Shown here: piece after piece, positions 1 through 8,202 of the stretch
Layout: every line of letters starts with the position of its first letter
How positions within the stretch are numbered: position 1 is the first letter of the stretch
Origin: a virus
Lineage: Duplodnaviria > Heunggongvirae > Uroviricota > Caudoviricetes
DNA: 9,238 nucleotides
Strand: one strand, 5' to 3'
Virus record (IMG/VR): IMGVR_UViG_2703718854_000002
Position numbers and translations under genes: made by a program
The notes under the pieces: generated by a model
Databases searched by the model: none
The model's input: the letters and a program-made list of their open reading frames with translations, nothing else
Told to the model about the DNA's origin: nothing

Positions 1-798
1 TTAATGAACATTCGTCGCCGAAAACGAGTCTGTATCATTAGCGTGATGCAGTCTCTGCAAAGGATCTTGTTGATAAAATTGGCAGAAACGTTGCCACAAT
101 GAAGGGAAACGAGGAGCAAAAAGTTCTGGGGCGCTAAAGAAATATTCAGAAAGTACGGCAAAACATTCAGCAGGATCGCTGGCTGCATAAGCATCAATGC
201 TCGCCGCATTCTCGCCAACCAATTCGATTTCTTCCTGAATGTTGTTCATTGCAGCATGAAGATCGTGTTCCCAGCCAGCAACCTCACGCAACGGAATAAA
301 GGGAACTCCGCTGGCGCGATCGCCGTTACGGGTGTCCAGCTTATGAGCGACTTCATGAATAATCAGGTTAAAACCAGAAGCATCAAAAGAATCTTGTATA
401 TCCAACCAGTTCAAAACGATAGGCCCTTGCTGCCAGCTCTGACCTGACTGAACAATACGTTGGTTATGCACCAGACCGATATCGTCTTCCCATTCATCAT
501 CGACCACAAATGGCGCAGGATAAATTAAGACTTCATGAAAACCATCCAGCCATTCCAGTCCTAACTCCAGAACGGGTAGGCAAAATAGAAGTGCTATCCG
601 GCAGCTTCTTAATGAATCCAGTTCAAAGCCCTGTAAAGGAACAAGCCGCTTTTGCTGTAAAAAACGTTCGGCAAGAGTGACTAATTTGCTTTGTTCCTGT
701 TCCGTCAGACACGTTAAAAGGGGGATCGATAGTGCTTCCTGCCAGGGAAGGGCAGTTTGATGTGCTGATTCTTGTACTTTCCAGGGCCACTTAATCAT
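1..798 (-). CDS. mtfA: MtfA (Mlc titration factor A), zinc-dependent peptidase
   Basis: Minus-strand ORF with TAA stop at 1-3. Product begins [11 protein letters not shown] and carries an HEVAH (HExxH) zinc-peptidase motif; recognised from memory as enterobacterial MtfA/YeeI. The ORF track extends to 837 ([13 protein letters not shown]-), but the conserved N-terminus starts at the ATG at 796-798. Confidence 0.85.
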
Positions 799-891
799 CG
801 TTTTGCTCGCAAACTCGTCACTTGAACAAAATTGCACGGACAGGGACTGTTAAAATGCCAAATTTCCTGGCATCATGGCAACCATCTGAAC

Positions 892-981
892 GGAGAGATG
901 CCGGAGCGGCTGAACGGACCGGTCTCGAAAACCGGAGTAGGGGAAACTCTACCGGGGGTTCAAATCCCCCTCTCTCCGCCA
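892..981 (+). tRNA. serU: tRNA-Ser (anticodon CGA), class II tRNA with long variable arm
   Basis: 90 nt. 7-bp acceptor stem GGAGAGA (892-898) pairs with TCTCTCC (971-977). Anticodon stem CCGGT/ACCGG encloses loop CTCGAAA, giving anticodon CGA. T-arm is GGGGG-TTCAAAT-CCCCC, followed by discriminator G and encoded CCA (979-981). Confidence 0.9.
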
Positions 982-1027
982 CTATTCAATCACTTACAGT
1001 GTTTCGATTCAGTGACCAACATCCCGT

Positions 1028-1061
1028 TGAGAAAAAATGAGAAAATCCACTGAGAAAAAAT
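1028..1061. repeat. Short direct repeats TGAGAAAA(AA)T, three copies starting at 1028, 1038 and 1051, between tRNA 3' end and integrase stop
   Basis: Read directly: tgagaaaaaat at 1028-1038, tgagaaaat at 1038-1046, tgagaaaaaat at 1051-1061. Location fits an attL-proximal arm region; function not established. Confidence 0.3.
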
Positions 1062-1096
1062 AACGCCAGATTTGCACCCGGCGCTGTATCTCAAAC

Positions 1097-1777
1097 TCAC
1101 ATTTTTCTGTTTAAAGTTGGGCTAATTTTTACTTTCCTGTCGTATACCAACACCTGTGATTCAGTTTTGTGACCACTGAATTTTTGCTTATCACGGCCAC
1201 TTCCTTCATAGTCAGAAATGCCTTTCGCCTTCAGATCATGGAACGTGCAGTCTAACGGTCTGCCAATTTTTTCAGCAGCCGCATTCCTAGCCTTTCTCCA
1301 GGCTTCATTGAAACCTTTATAGGAATATCGCTCTCCGTACATGGTTTTGATGACAGCGCCATCTTCCCCTGATTTCCTGCAAAGATTGACAGCGGAGTGC
1401 AAGCGGTCTGTCCACGCTTTAATCTGCTTAACTCCAGTTTTACCCTGTTGAATGAAAATTCCTTTATCCATTATCTGATTCCAGTCCATTTTCAGAACAT
1501 CGGAAACCCTCGCTGCACAGAGATAAGCAATTTCCATTGCGGCTTTTACCGGATCAGTAGCACAGTCATAAATTGCTAAATACTCTTCATCCGTAATGTA
1601 TCGGTCGCGCTGAGGTTTAGGGTATTTATCGACGCCTACGCATGGGTTGCCTGGCACAAATCCACGTTGATATCCCCACCTGTAAACGCGTGACATCGAA
1701 CTATGCTCATGGTTAGCCTGTACGGATGCAATGAAAGAGTTCGGCATCACTGAACCAAAAGATAAGGCGATGTTCAT
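1097..1777 (-). pseudogene. int: Lambda-family tyrosine integrase, C-terminal catalytic domain only (N-terminally truncated remnant)
   Basis: Product aligns by eye to the lambda Int catalytic domain: RDRYITDEEYLAIYDCA, CAARVSD (Arg I), GKTGVK (Lys), FHDLKAK (His present, Arg II position is Lys), GHKTES (His II), LVYDRK (Tyr). An in-frame stop (tca at 1781-1783) lies two codons upstream of the ORF-track Met. The first ~27 residues (1697-1777) are antisense to the endolysin 5' end, so integrase-derived sequence begins near 1696. No room for arm-binding or core-binding domains. Confidence 0.7.
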
Positions 1778-2261
1778 TGCTCAGGTAGGACATGAATCGG
1801 CGGGATTCTCTGCGCTGGTGGAGAACTTCAACTACACGCCTGCCGCATTACTGACGACGTTTGGACGCCGGGTAACGAACTACCAGGCCTCAATGCTTGG
1901 ACGTGCCAACGGTAAGCCAGCAAGTCAGGAAGCTATCGCGAACCTGGTATACAGCAACCGCCTGGGTAATAAAGCTGCTGGTGATGGCTGGAAATACCGT
2001 GGGCGCGGATTAATTCAGATTACCGGTCTCACCAATTACCGTGATTGCGGCAATGGTCTGAAGCTTGACCTGGTTACTAACCCTGAACTGCTGGAGAAAG
2101 ACATCAATGCTGCGCGTTCTGCTGCATGGTTCTACGCCTCCAAAGGTTGCCTGAAGTACACCGATGACCTGGTGCGCATCACTCAGATTATCAATGGCGG
2201 TCAGAACGGCATTAACGACAGACGCGTGCGTTACGGCAAAGCGAAAGCGGTGATTGCATGA
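1731..2261 (+). CDS. Phage endolysin, glycoside hydrolase family 19 (chitinase-like lysozyme)
   Basis: FIAQVGHESAGFSALVENFNY carries two Glu spaced as in the GH19 catalytic pair, and YRGRGLIQITGLTNY follows. It closely resembles Salmonella phage SPN1S-type endolysin as I recall it. The frame is open only from 1686 (stop taa at 1683-1685), so ~25-30 N-terminal residues of the full-length family member appear lost. Stop overlaps the next start (ATGA at 2258-2261). Confidence 0.75.
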   Translation: MKEFGITEPKDKAMFIAQVGHESAGFSALVENFNYTPAALLTTFGRRVTNYQASMLGRANGKPASQEAIANLVYSNRLGNKAAGDGWKYRGRGLIQITGLTNYRDCGNGLKLDLVTNPELLEKDINAARSAAWFYASKGCLKYTDDLVRITQIINGGQNGINDRRVRYGKAKAVIA

Positions 2262-2530
2262 GCATTGTAGAAATCATCATTGGTGTCATTGGTGCTATCT
2301 GTGTTGCCGCTGCTGGTGGGTTTGGTCTTGGCCATATTCGCGGAACCAGCAAAGCAGAAGCGAAAGCCGATCAACAACGCACTGAAGAAAACGCAGCGGC
2401 GAAGGTTGCAGTGGCAGAACGTCAGGCAGAAGTCACCAGAGAGGCCAGTAATGTACAGCAGAAAGTTAATCATATGCCTGGCGACGACGTTGATCGCGAG
2501 CTGCGCACAAACTGGACCCGTAAGGGTTGA
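2258..2530 (+). CDS. Rz-like i-spanin (N-terminal TM helix plus charged coiled-coil region)
   Basis: ATGA overlap with endolysin stop. Hydrophobic N-terminus IIIGVIGAICVAAAGGFGLG followed by Ala/Glu/Lys/Gln-rich segment. Position immediately after endolysin is typical for Rz. Confidence 0.5.
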   Translation: MSIVEIIIGVIGAICVAAAGGFGLGHIRGTSKAEAKADQQRTEENAAAKVAVAERQAEVTREASNVQQKVNHMPGDDVDRELRTNWTRKG

Positions 2531-2681
2531 GGTAGTCGATACGGCGTGCGACTGGGTTCATCCTATCTATGCAACAGATAATGACTGGGATGTGTTGGAT
2601 AAGCAGACCAAGCGCGACATCCTGACGCATAACAAAGCGTGGCAGGCAAATTGTCAGAAGGAGAAACTCGAAATCAAGTAG
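2451..2681 (+). CDS. Rz1-like o-spanin lipoprotein, +1 frame, overlapping and extending beyond Rz
   Basis: ATG at 2451 preceded by GAGAGG (2439-2444) with 6-nt spacer. Signal peptide MYSRKLIICLATTLIASC with lipobox IAS|C. Starts inside Rz and ends 151 bp after it (overlapped, not embedded, architecture). The ORF track's longer 2280 start is a TTG in the same frame. Confidence 0.5.
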   Translation: MYSRKLIICLATTLIASCAQTGPVRVEVVDTACDWVHPIYATDNDWDVLDKQTKRDILTHNKAWQANCQKEKLEIK

Positions 2682-3049
2682 CAAAGCGGTTAGACCGCAG
2701 CCGAAAGGCAATGCAGCAGTAATGATGCTGCCCTGAGTCGCCATTGAGCGAGCCTGTATAGCGACGGGTCAAGGTTCTTATATCAAAATAAGCTCCGGTA
2801 GAGCAGCGCGAACGCCAGACGCGCACCGGTTATAAGCGGCGATGAAGCGACAGCAACTCAAGGGCATGAGCGTGGCCACTCCGGGAAGTGGTGAGGCATT
2901 TAAATGCAGCCTAGATAATTAGAATGGGAATGTTTTATGAAAAACTTATTCAGTACATCAGATGAAATGCTAATGAAACGATCGTCTAATGTTAAAAGAC
3001 AAGAGCTGCTTGAGATTTGCAACCGATTCGTATGTTTCTCGTTTGTTAA

Positions 3050-3067
3050 GCCGGGTGCAACCCCGGC
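3050..3067 (-). terminator. GC-rich hairpin (GCCGGG-tgcaac-CCCGGC) just downstream of the Cys-cluster gene stop
   Basis: Perfect 6-bp inverted repeat with 6-nt loop, 8 nt beyond the stop at 3076-3078 on the minus strand. Only a weak U tract follows, so termination is uncertain. Confidence 0.3.
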
Positions 3068-3075
3068 ATCGGATG

Positions 3076-3609
3076 CTAATTTAAAGGAGCAATCGGGTCT
3101 GTCTTCGAATTCGCAGCGAATTGAATTAATCCAATCATAGTTGCACGAATCTTATCAAACTCTCTGGTTTTAACTACCTCGGTCATAGCTGCTGTAACGT
3201 CGACATTTGAAGAGCAAAAGCCTTCTTTTGTCGGAATCGAAATCTGAACGGTCATCCCATTTGCAATTGAACTGCTTAAAACACGTAAAGGCTCTGGATC
3301 AAGCAATGTAGTAACTTGACCATCATTTACTGGCTGAAAGCACAGAGCTTTGCCATCGAAGCGAATAAGAACACCACAACGATCAGGCCTCATTTCCGGA
3401 CCGATACCTAAAACTCTCCATCCGCAGTACCACGTACGACATAGAGATGGGCGATCATTATAAATCGAACATCCGCCCTGTGCTTTAAGATGCTGACATG
3501 GCACTCCAGCAAATTTTTTAAGCTCTGGCTCTTCGATTCTCAGGGATTTACAACAAACAGAACATGAACCACATTTTCTATCTTTGATTAGCAATTTTTC
3601 CAGACTCAT
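3076..3609 (-). CDS. YkgJ/UPF0153-family cysteine-cluster protein (CxxCxxCC putative Zn/Fe-chelating domain; FliB-like)
   Basis: N-terminal CGSCSVCC (exact CxxCxxCC), then C-QHL and GGCSIYNDRPSLCRTWYCGW, matching the YkgJ-family pattern as I recall it. Strong SD AAGGAGG 8 nt upstream of the ATG at 3609. The C-terminal ~90 residues have no motif I recognise. Confidence 0.55.
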   Translation of the reverse strand: MSLEKLLIKDRKCGSCSVCCKSLRIEEPELKKFAGVPCQHLKAQGGCSIYNDRPSLCRTWYCGWRVLGIGPEMRPDRCGVLIRFDGKALCFQPVNDGQVTTLLDPEPLRVLSSSIANGMTVQISIPTKEGFCSSNVDVTAAMTEVVKTREFDKIRATMIGLIQFAANSKTDPIAPLN

Positions 3610-3811
3610 TTCCCATGCCTCCTTTTTGAGGTGTCACTCAACAAAATGAACAAAGATAATTTTGTAATTTGATACTTACTGGCATTGCTGGCGGCTATTG
3701 CTGGAGTATAAAGCGCATCTCACGCGCACTTCAAAGAAAGTCTTTCAGCTGTGAGCCTGGGCACGCCGTTAGCCGGAATTGGCGATTTAGCAATGCAGAG
3801 GGAGATTAACC

Positions 3812-4108
3812 ATGGCATCCAATTCACCTTGGCATAGCCTCTACAATTCCAAGCGTTGGTACCGACTCCGCTATCACCAGCTTCAGAAGCAACCTCTTTG
3901 TGAGTTCCACCTCCGGCGCAATCAGGTGATAGCGGCAACGATCGTTGACCATGTCATCCCGCACAAAGGAGACGATAGGCTCTTTCATGATCCGGATAAT
4001 CTTCAGTCACTTTGCAAACGTTGCCACGACTCGGTAAAGCAGAGGATGGAGAAGGGCGGAACGGTCATGGACAGCTACAAGGCGCTCATTGTCAGGAACA
4101 AAGCTTAA
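3812..4108 (+). CDS. Phage HNH endonuclease
   Basis: C-x-F-H ... VDHVIPH ... N-LQSLCKRCH pattern (HNH beta-beta-alpha metal finger with flanking Cys/His). RBS-like GAGGGAG upstream of ATG 3812. Small HNH proteins are typical of lambdoid packaging modules. Confidence 0.6.
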   Translation: MASNSPWHSLYNSKRWYRLRYHQLQKQPLCEFHLRRNQVIAATIVDHVIPHKGDDRLFHDPDNLQSLCKRCHDSVKQRMEKGGTVMDSYKALIVRNKA

Positions 4109-4763
4109 TATTAATAATTCAGGTGGTTTAGGCCAAATATCATTTACAACGTCAATAGGAAAAGAAGTTGGCATCGCTCAAATAAACTATACCGGAACCT
4201 CTACGCCTCTTGTTATCGGCTCAGGGGGTACTTTAAACCCTAATGCTATTTTCTTCTTCACAAACCCGACAGTGACAAGTGAAAATGGAGGAGTTCAATC
4301 TTTTCAGATTTACAATAATCAGGTATTACCTGGTGTTGCAAGTTCACAGTCACTAGGGAGCGCGTCGTTTAGATGGACACAGCTGTACGCAGATACAGCA
4401 ACAATCAGTACATCTGATATAAGAAACAAGACCGATATTGTTGATATAAATGATATAGAAAGGAGGGTCGCAATAAGACTGAAAGGACTCATTCGGCGAT
4501 ATAAGCTTAAAAATGCCGTGATGAGCAAGGGAAATGACAAAGCTCGTTACCATATTGGAATAATTGCGCAGGAAGTTGAGAAAGCCTTTGCAGAAGAAGG
4601 ACTAAATGGTTTTGATTATGGATTGCTTTGTTATGACTCATGGGGCCATGAATCTGTGCTTTACTCTGAAGATGGGGTGATACAGAAGCCAGAAATTATT
4701 GCCGGAGAGGGGTATTCAGTTCGCTATGAAGAATTGCTTTGTTTTATAATATCAGCCATTTAG
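4089..4763 (+). pseudogene. Tail fibre/tailspike C-terminal fragment with intramolecular chaperone (peptidase S74-like) domain
   Basis: STSDIRNKTDIVDI...RYHIGIIAQEVEKAFAEEG resembles the autoproteolytic C-terminal chaperone domain of phage tail fibres. The frame is open only from 4038 (stop taa at 4035-4037) and the only start is a TTG at 4089, which overlaps the HNH gene, so the N-terminal part of the fibre is absent. Confidence 0.5.
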
Positions 4764-4808: not shown

Positions 4809-5795
4809 TTAGACGACTCTTCGCAAAATCGGTATTGCAGTAAATATTTTAACAATGATAATTGAAGATGCAATGTAAAATACTGCTGCCAGAGGAATAC
4901 CCCATACATAATTTGTAATTGGTAGGTACTTCCATGAAGTGAAAATAATTATTGGGTGAACTAGATAAATGCCAAATGCATGCTTTGAAATTATTTTTAT
5001 TATTGGGCTTGTCAAATCAGCTAAATTCTTAGCATAACCAATGCAAGCAAATGTAGTACTTATCGCCGTAATAGCTACCATTGGGCTGAAGTTCTTCAAG
5101 CTCATTCCTTGGTATTCACCATGAACTATCCCTTTATTAACATAAATGGTAACAACGGAAAGTGTCAATGAAAGGAGAGCAAATACAATCCTGTACTTAA
5201 TTATTAAATCTTCCTTGCGTGCAGCTATGTAACCTGCAAAAACATAGAGCATTAAATAACTTGCAAATGGAACGTTTATCTTCGGAGCGGGTATTCCTAT
5301 TGCATTAAGCTCTGGGTATAAGGATGTGCTGTAAAACAGAACTGCGAATATCAAAAGGCTATAGCGCGTTCTTATTTCTCTACATCCCATAACTATCATT
5401 GGAACAAAAAGATAAATTGCAATGTAATCGTACATAAACCAAAGGTGTATGCTTGATGGTTTCATAGGGCTAAAACTATCTATGCCTGCATTTTTAAAAA
5501 GTATCAAATATGCTGCGTAAATTACCCACCAAAACGCCAGTGGAATTACAAGGAGATTTATTCCTTTAAGGATGAAGCCTTTAAACTCAATTTCTTTATT
5601 TGCATAGAGAAAGCCAGTTATGACAATGAAAATACCAATGCATTGTTTCGATATTGCGCTGTAAATATTGGCCCACTCCCAGTCAGGAGCGAGTTTAGCC
5701 CCGAAAGGTCCGGCACTGGCATGTAGTAAAACTACCAGCAATATAGCAATAAAACGTGCAACTACAACTCCGTTATTAATGTCTGTTTTTGCCAT
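4809..5795 (-). CDS. Acyltransferase-3 family integral membrane O-acetyltransferase (Oac-like O-antigen acetylase)
   Basis: 328-aa polytopic membrane protein. N-terminus VVVARFIAILLVVLLHASAGPF carries the R-x(n)-H motif of the acyltransferase-3 family. Same strand as, and immediately downstream of, the gtr cluster. Visibly AT-rich coding sequence. Confidence 0.7.
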   Translation of the reverse strand: MAKTDINNGVVVARFIAILLVVLLHASAGPFGAKLAPDWEWANIYSAISKQCIGIFIVITGFLYANKEIEFKGFILKGINLLVIPLAFWWVIYAAYLILFKNAGIDSFSPMKPSSIHLWFMYDYIAIYLFVPMIVMGCREIRTRYSLLIFAVLFYSTSLYPELNAIGIPAPKINVPFASYLMLYVFAGYIAARKEDLIIKYRIVFALLSLTLSVVTIYVNKGIVHGEYQGMSLKNFSPMVAITAISTTFACIGYAKNLADLTSPIIKIISKHAFGIYLVHPIIIFTSWKYLPITNYVWGIPLAAVFYIASSIIIVKIFTAIPILRRVV

Positions 5796-5827
5796 TTAGA
5801 TCAGCCCACTAATGAGTTTGCAAAGGT

Positions 5828-5851
5828 GATGCCAACAAAAGTGTTGGCATC
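5828..5851. repeat. Perfect 24-bp palindrome GATGCCAACA-aaag-TGTTGGCATC in the gtr-type/acetyltransferase intergenic spacer
   Basis: Read directly from the sequence: 10-bp arms, 4-nt loop, 8 nt downstream of the glucosyltransferase stop and 33 nt upstream of the acetyltransferase start. Confidence 0.6.
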
Positions 5852-5858
5852 AAAATAA

Positions 5859-7277
5859 TTAGTTCACTATAACAATTGCTTGTCCATTTCGCTCTTTCAA
5901 TATCATGTTTTGAGCGTTGAATCTCACAGTTCCATCTGATTCTATTTTTTTACAACCAGAATCGCACGGGTAGATACTATACCCCAGTTTTAAATGGGAG
6001 ACTTTATCCATGAAAGGATTGCCAGTATAGAAGTATCTATTCATATTGTATATGAAAGGAAATGCTTTTCTGTATGGTTCTGATGCTGAACTGGGTTTGT
6101 TTATTTTTAGATAAATTTTCTGGTAATCTTTATTTTGCAGCGATAAGACTGCATTTGTACGCATTAAGACATTATCAATTCTGGAATAATTTATATTTTG
6201 AAGCATGAAGAAACAGCTTACAAAAATAAATGATATTACCATCGGCACAACTGATACCCAATCAAGCCTTTTAAAGGTGATATTAGTAAAAATAATCATT
6301 GTCGATGCCATGATTATCACTCCGCCCGAAACCATAGAACGACTGGTCACTGGTGGATTTTTTAGAATCAGTAGCATGCCAAAGGAAAGGAAGATAATAA
6401 ACAAGTAAAAAACAACACTCGTTAATTTTACAGGCAAGCTTAATCCTTTTTTTAATAAAATCACAGCAAAAGGAAGCGTAACATACAAAAGTAAAATTTT
6501 TCCTATAAACCCATGGAATAAATCATAAAAGATTTCCTTGAATTTAAGATAGGAGGTGAACATGTTTTTTAACGTATACATGTCAATGCCCAGCATTTCA
6601 GAGCGCATCTTTGTATACTCACTCATATCATCGGGGTTAAAAATCACCTTCTTGTATAGTGCGTATGCAACAAGCATTAGAACGCCAGCAATGACGCAAA
6701 ACTTAATAGCACTAAAAATAGTTGCTTTACCTGACATCATGCTGTGTATGGCTAGTATCAATATAATTGATAAGTATACTGCAATAGATGACTGATAAGA
6801 TGAAATTGCCAGTATTAGCAGAATGAATGCTGTAGCATAAAAGAGCTTTGAAGAAACTCCGAGATAACAGTAGTACGCTGCCATCGCAGCCATGCCTACA
6901 GATGCGGACATCAAAATTGCATCATACTGATAGGCAAGATTATTTATAAAAAATGGGGATAGTAAAAGTGATAAAGAAAATGATGCTTTCGCAAAACTCA
7001 ACTCGCTACCAAAAAATACACTGCTGATTTTGTGTGCAGGGTAAATGAGGAACAGCGCTGCAATCATCATAGTAAATGGAGATAATATTAGAATATGACC
7101 GTTGCCAATGAGATTAGACAGGACTGTTGAAAAATATCTACCATTATGATCCCATCCATATGGTATCTCTATACGCAAAAAATCATCTACGTATAAATGT
7201 CCACCGATAATGAAAGGGAGCACATATAAAAAACCAACAAACAGTAAAATTCCTAAATTTTTAGAATCGTTAGTCAT
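5859..7277 (-). CDS. Serotype-specific O-antigen glucosyltransferase (GtrC/Gtr-type family), polytopic membrane protein
   Basis: Large, AT-rich multi-TM ORF immediately downstream of gtrB in a gtrA-gtrB-gtr(type) arrangement. Start chosen at ATG 7277 (MTNDSKNLG-), which has AGGA 9 nt upstream; the ORF track's longer start is ATG 7295 (MSGKTAM-), which lacks an SD. Either way it overlaps the gtrB 3' end. Confidence 0.65.
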
Positions 7278-8202
7278 TGCTGTCTTTCCTGACATTTTTT
7301 AGAACATATTTTGGACGTTGTTTGGTTTCAATATAAATTCTGCCGATATATTCACCTAACACACCGATTCCAATCAACTGTATTCCGCCAAGGAAAAGGA
7401 TTGAAACAAGGAGCGAAGGGTAACCACGAACTGGGTTGCCAAAGGCAAGAGTGTTTACAATCATCCACGCGCCATATAAAAAAGATAGACCGGCAACAAA
7501 CAATCCAATGTATGTCCACATCCTCAGCGGGAATGTGGAGAAACTTGTTATACCTTCAAGTGCTAGGTTCCACAACTTCCAGCCGTTGAATTTAGAATCA
7601 CCTGCGACACGTTCAGCACGCACGTATTCTACAACATCAGTTTTTCCGCCAACCCACGAAAGAACCCCCTTCATAAATAGATTTCTTTCGGGTAGCTGTT
7701 TGATATTCTCTACGACCTCTCGTGACATCAGACGGAAGTCACCAACATTCTCTTCAATTTTTGGATTGCTGATTTTATTATGCAGCTTATAAAACCACTC
7801 AGCAGATTTCCGCTTTAAGCGGCTGTCAGTTGAACGGTCTGAGCGCTTAGCCAACACCATATCTGCACCAGCCTGCCATTTTTCGATCAGATTAGGAATG
7901 ACCTCTATTGGATCCTGAAGGTCGACATCAATCGGGATAACCGCTTCACCAGTGGCATGATCAAGGCCAGCGAAAAGAGCTGGTTCTTTACCGAAGTTTC
8001 TGGTGAAGGATAAAGGCATAACAAGCGGATCAGCAACGGCAAGTGCATTAATAATAGATTCGGTCGCATCTTTGCTGCCGTCATTGATGAATACTATCTC
8101 TACTTCATGATTTTGAAGTTCTTCAAATTCACGAACCGTTTTATAGAAGATCGGTATTGTAGCCTCTTCGTTAAATACCGGAACGACAAGAGAAATCTTC
8201 AT
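7270..8202 (-). CDS. gtrB: Bactoprenol glucosyltransferase GtrB (GT2 family)
   Basis: [14 protein letters not shown]-terminus, DVDLQDP (DxD) motif, two C-terminal TM segments. ATGA start/stop overlap with gtrA at 8199-8202. Confidence 0.9.

Follow-up and report, generated by a model that had tools for sequence, protein, structure and literature searches.

A truncated ST64B-type integrase gene in a prophage remnant at serU of Escherichia coli, and the lysine that its clade carries at the Arg II position

The DNA considered here, called the window throughout, is the whole stretch of 9,238 nucleotides that was analysed, and it corresponds to the mtfA-serU-yodB region of Escherichia coli. It opens with mtfA (1-837, minus strand, identified by its open reading frame and by Pfam), followed by the tRNA-Ser(CGA) gene serU (892..981, plus strand, found with ARAGORN), which is the integration target of the element described below; a tRNA-Ser gene beside mtfA is likewise annotated in E. 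coli genomes. The window matches contig ABRPMI010000001.1 of GCA_038018135.1 (L008 in the following) at 100% identity, and none of the complete RefSeq E. coli genomes searched has the whole arrangement, so that the genomic context of the element was taken from draft assemblies. In L008, the element is delimited by a direct repeat, whose two copies (10795-10861 and 2345-2411) are 97% identical over 67 nt at a spacing of 8450 nt, and share a 39-nt identical block where the tRNA has its 3' end. The left copy, attL, lies at 917..983 of the window and overlaps the 3' part of serU, while attR falls about 130 nt past the window end, next to yodB, at the extrapolated window coordinates 9367-9433. The element is an 8.45-kb prophage remnant that carries gtrABC and oac and has both att repeats intact.

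From left to right, the element reads attL-int'-'lys-Rz-HNH-tail fibre'-oac-gtrC-gtrB-gtrA-attR, and the endolysin, spanin-like, HNH and tail-fibre fragments found between the att repeats identify it as the remnant of an integrated prophage. As judged from the sequence, this order fits a lambdoid prophage minus its early region, a stretch extending from int over the immunity, replication and holin genes. The cargo occupies 4809..8561 on the minus strand and consists of intact genes, each recognized by its reading frame and a Pfam match: an oac-like AT3 acyltransferase, i.e., an O-acetyltransferase (4809-5795, PF01757), a GtrII-type glucosyltransferase (5859-7295, PF14264), gtrB (7270-8202, PF00535), and gtrA (8199-8561, PF04138). 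Regarding the phage-derived genes, a GH19 endolysin (1725..2261, plus strand, PF00182) lacks its first 25 codons, is callable from an internal ATG at 1731, and has 92% protein identity to a 203-aa full-length homologue (L014 2424-3035); an HNH endonuclease is located at 3812-4108 and a tail-fibre fragment, which includes an S74 chaperone domain, at 4089-4763.

The element also contains some smaller reading frames. Located 3' of the endolysin, two overlapping frames of 90 and 133 aa (2258-2681, plus strand) have an Rz/Rz1-like layout and are about 84% identical to genes labeled "Rz-like spanin" in the Escherichia phages Fostie and SaltyDalty; the holin genes, found 5' of the endolysin in intact relatives (L014), are deleted in the window. 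Between the lysis and HNH genes, a 177-aa frame (3076-3609, minus strand) gives a weak match to the CxxCxxCC zinc/iron-chelating domain (PF03692), and may be a moron. Between gtrA and attR, there are two small overlapping frames on the plus strand (8677-8916 and 8903-9238), whose homologues bear the RefSeq labels "S24/S26 family peptidase" and "DNA polymerase V"; for the 111-aa frame near attR, the likeness to UmuD/HumD is restricted to the first 22-44 residues or so and is far under the family cut-offs.

The integrase reading frame, which is the main subject of this report, runs from 1097 to 1777 on the minus strand, encodes 226 aa, and is placed 115 nt from serU. It is composed of two parts of different origin. 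The larger one (1097..1724) comprises codons 122-329 and the stop codon of an ST64B/Sb28-type tyrosine integrase, as established by alignments to relatives of 329-330 aa, by Pfam, and by comparison with lambda Int structures in the PDB; the smaller one (1725..1777) is a leader of 18 codons unrelated to integrases, including the chance ATG, and is the antisense of the endolysin fragment. Full-length relatives are available in E. coli CUWW10 and XJW9B277, with integrases of 329 and 330 aa encoded at an equal distance from serU, and residues 19-226 of the stub correspond to residues 122-329 of the CUWW10 protein without a single amino-acid difference over these 208 residues. According to Pfam, the full-length protein has its core-binding domain at about 65-150 and its catalytic domain at 163-317; hence, the stub retains the final 29 or so core-binding residues and the whole catalytic domain, and is devoid of the arm-binding domain and of about two-thirds of the core-binding domain. 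The PF00589 match spans stub residues 60-214 and profile positions 2-167 of 172, with 45.2 bits against a gathering cut-off of 27.1. The residues at the catalytic positions are all present (R90, K113, H180, K183 at the Arg II position, H203, and Y212), and a terminator-like hairpin, called by a consensus scan only, lies just 3' of the stop codon (1062..1085, minus strand). The first-pass annotation had described this frame as the lambda-Int-like catalytic domain and nothing else, which agrees with the Pfam match and overlooks both the core-binding residues that are kept and the antisense leader. It was accurate about the borders: a minus-strand TGA at 1781-1783 is separated by one codon from the ATG of the stub (1775-1777), i.e., it lies two codons before the Met, and the frame overlaps by 47 nt with the endolysin frame on the plus strand (1731-2261), with the addition that the endolysin is itself truncated at its 5' end.

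With respect to classification, the stub falls in the ST64B/Sb28-type clade of serU integrases by its sequence identity, its HD[LI]KAK box II, and its location at the 3' end of a tRNA-Ser gene, while neither the integrase nor the stub was assigned to a specific family by NCBIfam. Measured against a heterobivalent lambda-type integrase, it starts at residue 122 of 329 and so has neither the N-terminal arm-binding domain nor a complete core-binding domain, and the window has no partner excisionase next to int; in intact relatives, a DUF4224 or excisionase gene is found upstream of it. A tblastn search of the window with the missing N-terminal 121 aa gave only noise (E >= 7), and one with the Xis-like protein (DUF4224) from an intact relative gave no significant match. 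The possibility of a full-length integrase hidden in a frameshifted upstream frame, which the first-pass annotation had named as what would overturn its reading, can be discarded: the upstream DNA is a lysis gene on the opposite strand. When the int gene alone was compared to E. coli genomes by megablast, 3 records only were retrieved; matches at about 90% owe their score to mtfA and serU, and hence provide no basis for the prevalence of the integrase at serU.

The boundary between the two parts of the frame is a deletion junction at 1724..1725, defined by homology breakpoints, that joins int codon 122 on the minus strand to endolysin codon 26 on the plus strand. DNA homology to the full-length int stops at base 1724, that to the endolysin begins at about 1725-1727, and the microhomology amounts to one or two bases at most. 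The same junction occurs in 15 contigs from independent assemblies, and for this reason an assembly artefact was rejected as its source.

Taken together, these data are very probably explained by a truncated ST64B-type int remnant left by deletion, in an island that would no longer be self-excisable and with a lysine that is the normal state of its clade. According to this scheme, a lambdoid prophage with an ST64B (Sb28)-type, lambda-like integrase entered the 3' end of serU. One illegitimate deletion, from int codon 121 to endolysin codon 25, took away the arm-binding domain and some two-thirds of the core-binding domain, as well as xis, the native int promoters, and the immunity, replication and holin genes. 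The fusion supplies an in-frame ATG by chance, with the result that gene callers report a 226-aa "integrase", and later deletions reduced the element to its present 8.45 kb. Devoid of its DNA-binding domains, of Xis and of a promoter, the stub should be unable to carry out attL x attR recombination, and the gtrABC/oac island should not be able to excise itself. The frame itself is a fusion pseudogene, an ordinary product of prophage decay.

The contigs that share the junction allow the order of events to be read. One of them, L010, is identical to the window from 1 to 4067, the int/lys junction included, and then continues into terS and the TerL, portal, protease, capsid and connector genes; thus, where the window has a second deletion junction, between the 3' end of the HNH endonuclease and the tail-fibre fragment (4067..4068, from blastn of the window against L010), L010 has no junction and retains the head genes terS-to-gp10. 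In turn, L010 is missing the tail-fibre fragment, and its oac is truncated, with the 3' part lost (L010 1-739). Another contig, L009, matches the window, but an IS (DDE_Tnp_1) splits its specific gtr gene, gtrC (L009 4111-5319). Because contigs with different later deletions, or with an IS insertion, have the int/lys junction in common, the int/lys deletion came first; because the stub-bearing contigs are 99.98-100% identical to one another, with at most one base difference in several kilobases, it is recent. Other E. coli strains carry the same int allele at serU, cut at other points or left whole. Z142-3 keeps the last 370 nt (123 codons), fused to a ymfL fragment (L015 20001-20691), PK5 keeps the last 151 nt (50 codons) beside IS3 and group II intron debris (L016 9001-9153), and in CUWW10 int is whole, abutted by an IS1, and gtrB is IS-disrupted (L001 7097-8869). 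In Z142-3 and CUWW10 there are gtr genes nearby, while in PK5 acyltransferase genes are found beyond mtfA. The cuts in Z142-3 and PK5 are independent of that in the window, and represent routine, repeated prophage decay.

The first-pass annotation had predicted an element that can no longer excise, on account of both the truncation and the lysine. Lambda-type integrases require arm-site binding and Xis for recombination between attL and attR. The element is therefore very unlikely to excise autonomously, the reason being the truncation rather than the lysine, and that prediction can be kept as far as the element on its own is concerned. The island could, however, be mobile in trans, if a superinfecting or co-resident ST64B-type phage supplied Int and Xis. 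Apart from the close similarity of the att repeats and their 39-nt identical block, this possibility is favoured by three TGAGAAAA repeats (1028..1058, plus strand) between attL and the int stop codon, which are candidate arm-type Int-binding sites. Of the six TGAGAAAW matches in 20.7 kb of L008, five adjoin one or other att copy, those next to attR being TGAGAAAA at 2448-2455 and 2511-2518, and TGAGAAAA also surrounds the attP core of ST64B (L017 1826-1860, 2006-2016, and 2068-2077). On these grounds the repeats are likely the arm-type binding sites of this integrase clade, and their presence at both att copies supports an integrase of the heterobivalent kind. Moreover, related full-length integrases are common in prophages and phages of Enterobacterales. 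Against mobility in trans, no empty sites or circles are in evidence, a circle of 8.45 kb, once excised, would lack the functions for replication and packaging and be lost, and the cross-reactivity of an Int at 84-88% identity with these arm and core sites is conjectural. Overall, we consider this route unlikely, and the phrase "fixing the O-antigen genes", used in the first-pass annotation, plausible but overstated: both att repeats survive, and the cargo itself is eroding in the sister contigs with the IS in gtrC and the truncated oac.

A second alternative is that the stub is an expressed and retained protein, either an arm-less catalytic fragment that poisons or blocks recombination at serU by incoming ST64B-type phages or a topoisomerase-like enzyme. 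Several observations count against the view of an inert remnant: the frame is intact, as are the six residues at the catalytic positions, the native stop codon and the terminator-like hairpin, NCBI annotates the stub (P0063) as a protein and not as a pseudogene, and the isolated catalytic domain of lambda Int (C170) is known to keep its cleavage and topoisomerase activity. In addition, over 1097-1724 the stub differs from the CUWW10 allele (L001 7097-7724) at 15 of 628 bases, with all 15 differences synonymous and none non-synonymous. Alone, the 15 synonymous differences could hint at continued selection; most likely, they predate the deletion and stem from the time when both alleles were complete genes, and the near-identity of the carriers leaves too little time for visible selection. 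As for expression, int of lambdoid phages is transcribed from promoters in or beyond xis, and the region on the xis side that holds them is deleted in the window; a scan of 950-2400 found no sigma-70-like promoter, and no Shine-Dalgarno sequence was evident for the stub ATG. The start codon is itself an accidental product of the fusion, and other strains cut int at places that leave 123 or 50 codons, as random decay would. An expressed, retained stub is in our judgment highly improbable. Its most specific form, in which read-through or a cryptic promoter would yield an arm-less, domesticated exclusion factor against ST64B-type phages at serU, would account for the intact frame and for the conserved residues at the catalytic positions, and we give it a slimmer chance still.

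The remaining point regards the lysine. Motif FHDLKAK occupies stub residues 179-185, and the AAG codon at 1229..1231 (minus strand) encodes the residue at the position of lambda Int R311, i.e., Arg II. As the first-pass annotation had noticed, the H-x-x-R box has Lys in place of Arg: MAFFT alignments to lambda Int and an HMMER alignment to PDB 1z1b set this Lys opposite lambda R311 in the ungapped block TFHDLKAK / TFHELRSL, so that H180 corresponds to lambda H308 and K183 to R311. The strict catalytic motif is thus canonical at 5 of 6 positions (R90, K113, H180, H203, and Y212), with K183 as the exception; this departure is shared by a whole active clade, and counts against conformity to the motif and not against activity.

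The lysine is invariant in the full-length relatives. Among the 120 closest database homologues, 108 have HD[LI]KAK and the other 12 are C-terminally truncated or frameshifted fragments that do not include the region, so that Lys is found in 108 of 108 informative sequences. Widening the comparison to the best 150 representatives of 50%-identity clusters, the lambda R311 column has K in 98, R in 36, other residues in 3 and a gap in 13, while R212, K235, H308, H333, and Y342 are each conserved in 130-142 of the 150. A neighbour-joining tree of 119 near-full-length sequences, with lambda as root, assigns Arg to the root and needs only two changes, and it groups 84 of the 85 Lys-bearing near-full-length sequences in a single clade that includes the query, at 31-55% identity to it. 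More distant relatives read HD[LI]RAKA. The clade includes isolated or induced phages of several hosts, namely Klebsiella KpF5 and the Kp488x-3 set, Salmonella ST64B and 118970_sal3, Stenotrophomonas BUCT708, and Pectobacterium ZF40; mEp390 gave a tblastn match only, at 47% identity. Sb28, the integrase of ST64B, shares 84.5% identity with the full-length E. coli allele as well as its HDLKAK box II, and in S. Typhimurium the excision of ST64B was measured through qPCR of attP (PMC12455584). The temperate phage ZF40 came from a lysogen after induction (PMC3391216), and in our alignment its integrase also has Lys at the Arg II position. Since the residue is spread clade-wide in homologues and tree, and phages that bear it excise or lysogenise, it is a conserved character of long standing in this clade rather than a mark of decay, and it has no part in the stub's loss of function. 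The IntKX subgroup of Smyshlyaev et al., considered as a possible "K" family, is unrelated.

Two independent lesions, truncation plus an Arg-to-Lys mutation of the catalytic site acquired during decay, are what the first-pass annotation had in effect proposed. Such a reading has a rationale in the literature: tyrosine recombinases conserve Arg II at about 99%, with Lys in its place in about 0.5% of them according to Gibb et al. (PMC2943603), the R292K mutant of Cre recombines in vivo and in vitro yet accumulates the covalent intermediate, as a ligation defect would have it (PMC2943603), and of two natural Lys-bearing integrases assayed, one failed to integrate (PMC12884075), the other, from a different subfamily, achieving integration in 18.7% of plasmid-receiving cells (PMC12884075). 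We find the two-lesion reading hardly credible, given that Lys is present in every informative full-length relative, defines a deep clade down to 31% identity, occurs in ST64B and ZF40, and belongs to an int-derived segment identical in protein to the full-length CUWW10 enzyme; a decay mutation is accordingly rejected as its origin. In this way, the comparison with full-length integrases that the first-pass annotation had suggested as a check bore out the truncation, with residues 122-329 left, and overturned the role given to the lysine.

At the sequence level the finding holds up; biologically it is ordinary, and its practical value lies mainly in annotation: the 226-aa "integrase" present in public records is a fusion pseudogene, and any prediction of island mobility based on the number of integrase genes will get the gtr/oac island wrong. 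The case further cautions that departure from the R-H-R-Y motif need not mean inactivation. The only mildly noteworthy by-product is that Lys at Arg II is natural to a large and active clade of lambda-like integrases, and the ST64B-type clade offers a natural system in which to study how recombinases offset the ligation defect of engineered R-to-K mutants. Finally, the sister loci form a small, clean decay series around an O-antigen-modifying cargo, with a shared first deletion, differing later deletions, an IS insertion, and independent truncations of int.

Among known systems, the closest is Salmonella phage ST64B. Its integrase Sb28 (NP_700401), together with those of 118970_sal3, KpF5 and Kp488x-3, which are near-identical to Sb28, is 84-89% identical in protein sequence to the full-length E. 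coli allele, and its box II, HDLKAKGISDYEG, is identical to that of the query. The ST64B attP core is similar to the 3' part of a tRNA-Ser gene, with TGAGAAAA repeats on its flanks, and int adjoins the att site, as it does here. The difference is one of completeness: Sb28 has 329 aa and an excisionase gene (sb29) upstream, whereas the copy in the window is without residues 1-121 and without xis.

The closest solved structure is that of lambda Int (PDB 1z1b, 1ae9, and 5j0n), with E = 1e-12 for 1z1b. The full-length relatives have the same layout of arm-binding, core-binding and catalytic domains, with counterparts of R212, K235, H308, H333, and Y342, although the identity is only about 23-29% and lambda has Arg at 311 where the clade has Lys. 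The stub begins at about lambda residue 137, and is therefore nearer to the isolated catalytic fragment than to the whole Int; the lambda fragment C170 cleaves DNA and does not recombine att sites.

At the level of the whole element, the best parallels are the gtr-bearing cryptic remnants, such as CPS-53/KplE1 of E. coli K-12 (intS-gtrABS) and the serotype-converting remnants of Shigella flexneri. These are tRNA-anchored, and in them gtrA, gtrB, the specific gtr and sometimes oac persist while phage functions are deleted. The element in the window differs from them in that it uses serU, and not argW or thrW, and has an integrase of another clade; the PAI-serU of UPEC, which figures in the literature on this tRNA gene, was considered and is unrelated to this island. 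KplE1 retains a full-length, active IntS (PMC2951348), whereas int in the window is cut in half. As for the lysine, Cre R292K and Pal_Y-Int_1 indicate that recombination can proceed with Lys in place of the box II arginine (PMC2943603; PMC12884075); the former is a point mutant and the others are single integrases of other subfamilies, while here Lys marks a clade of lambda-like integrases of enterobacterial phages.
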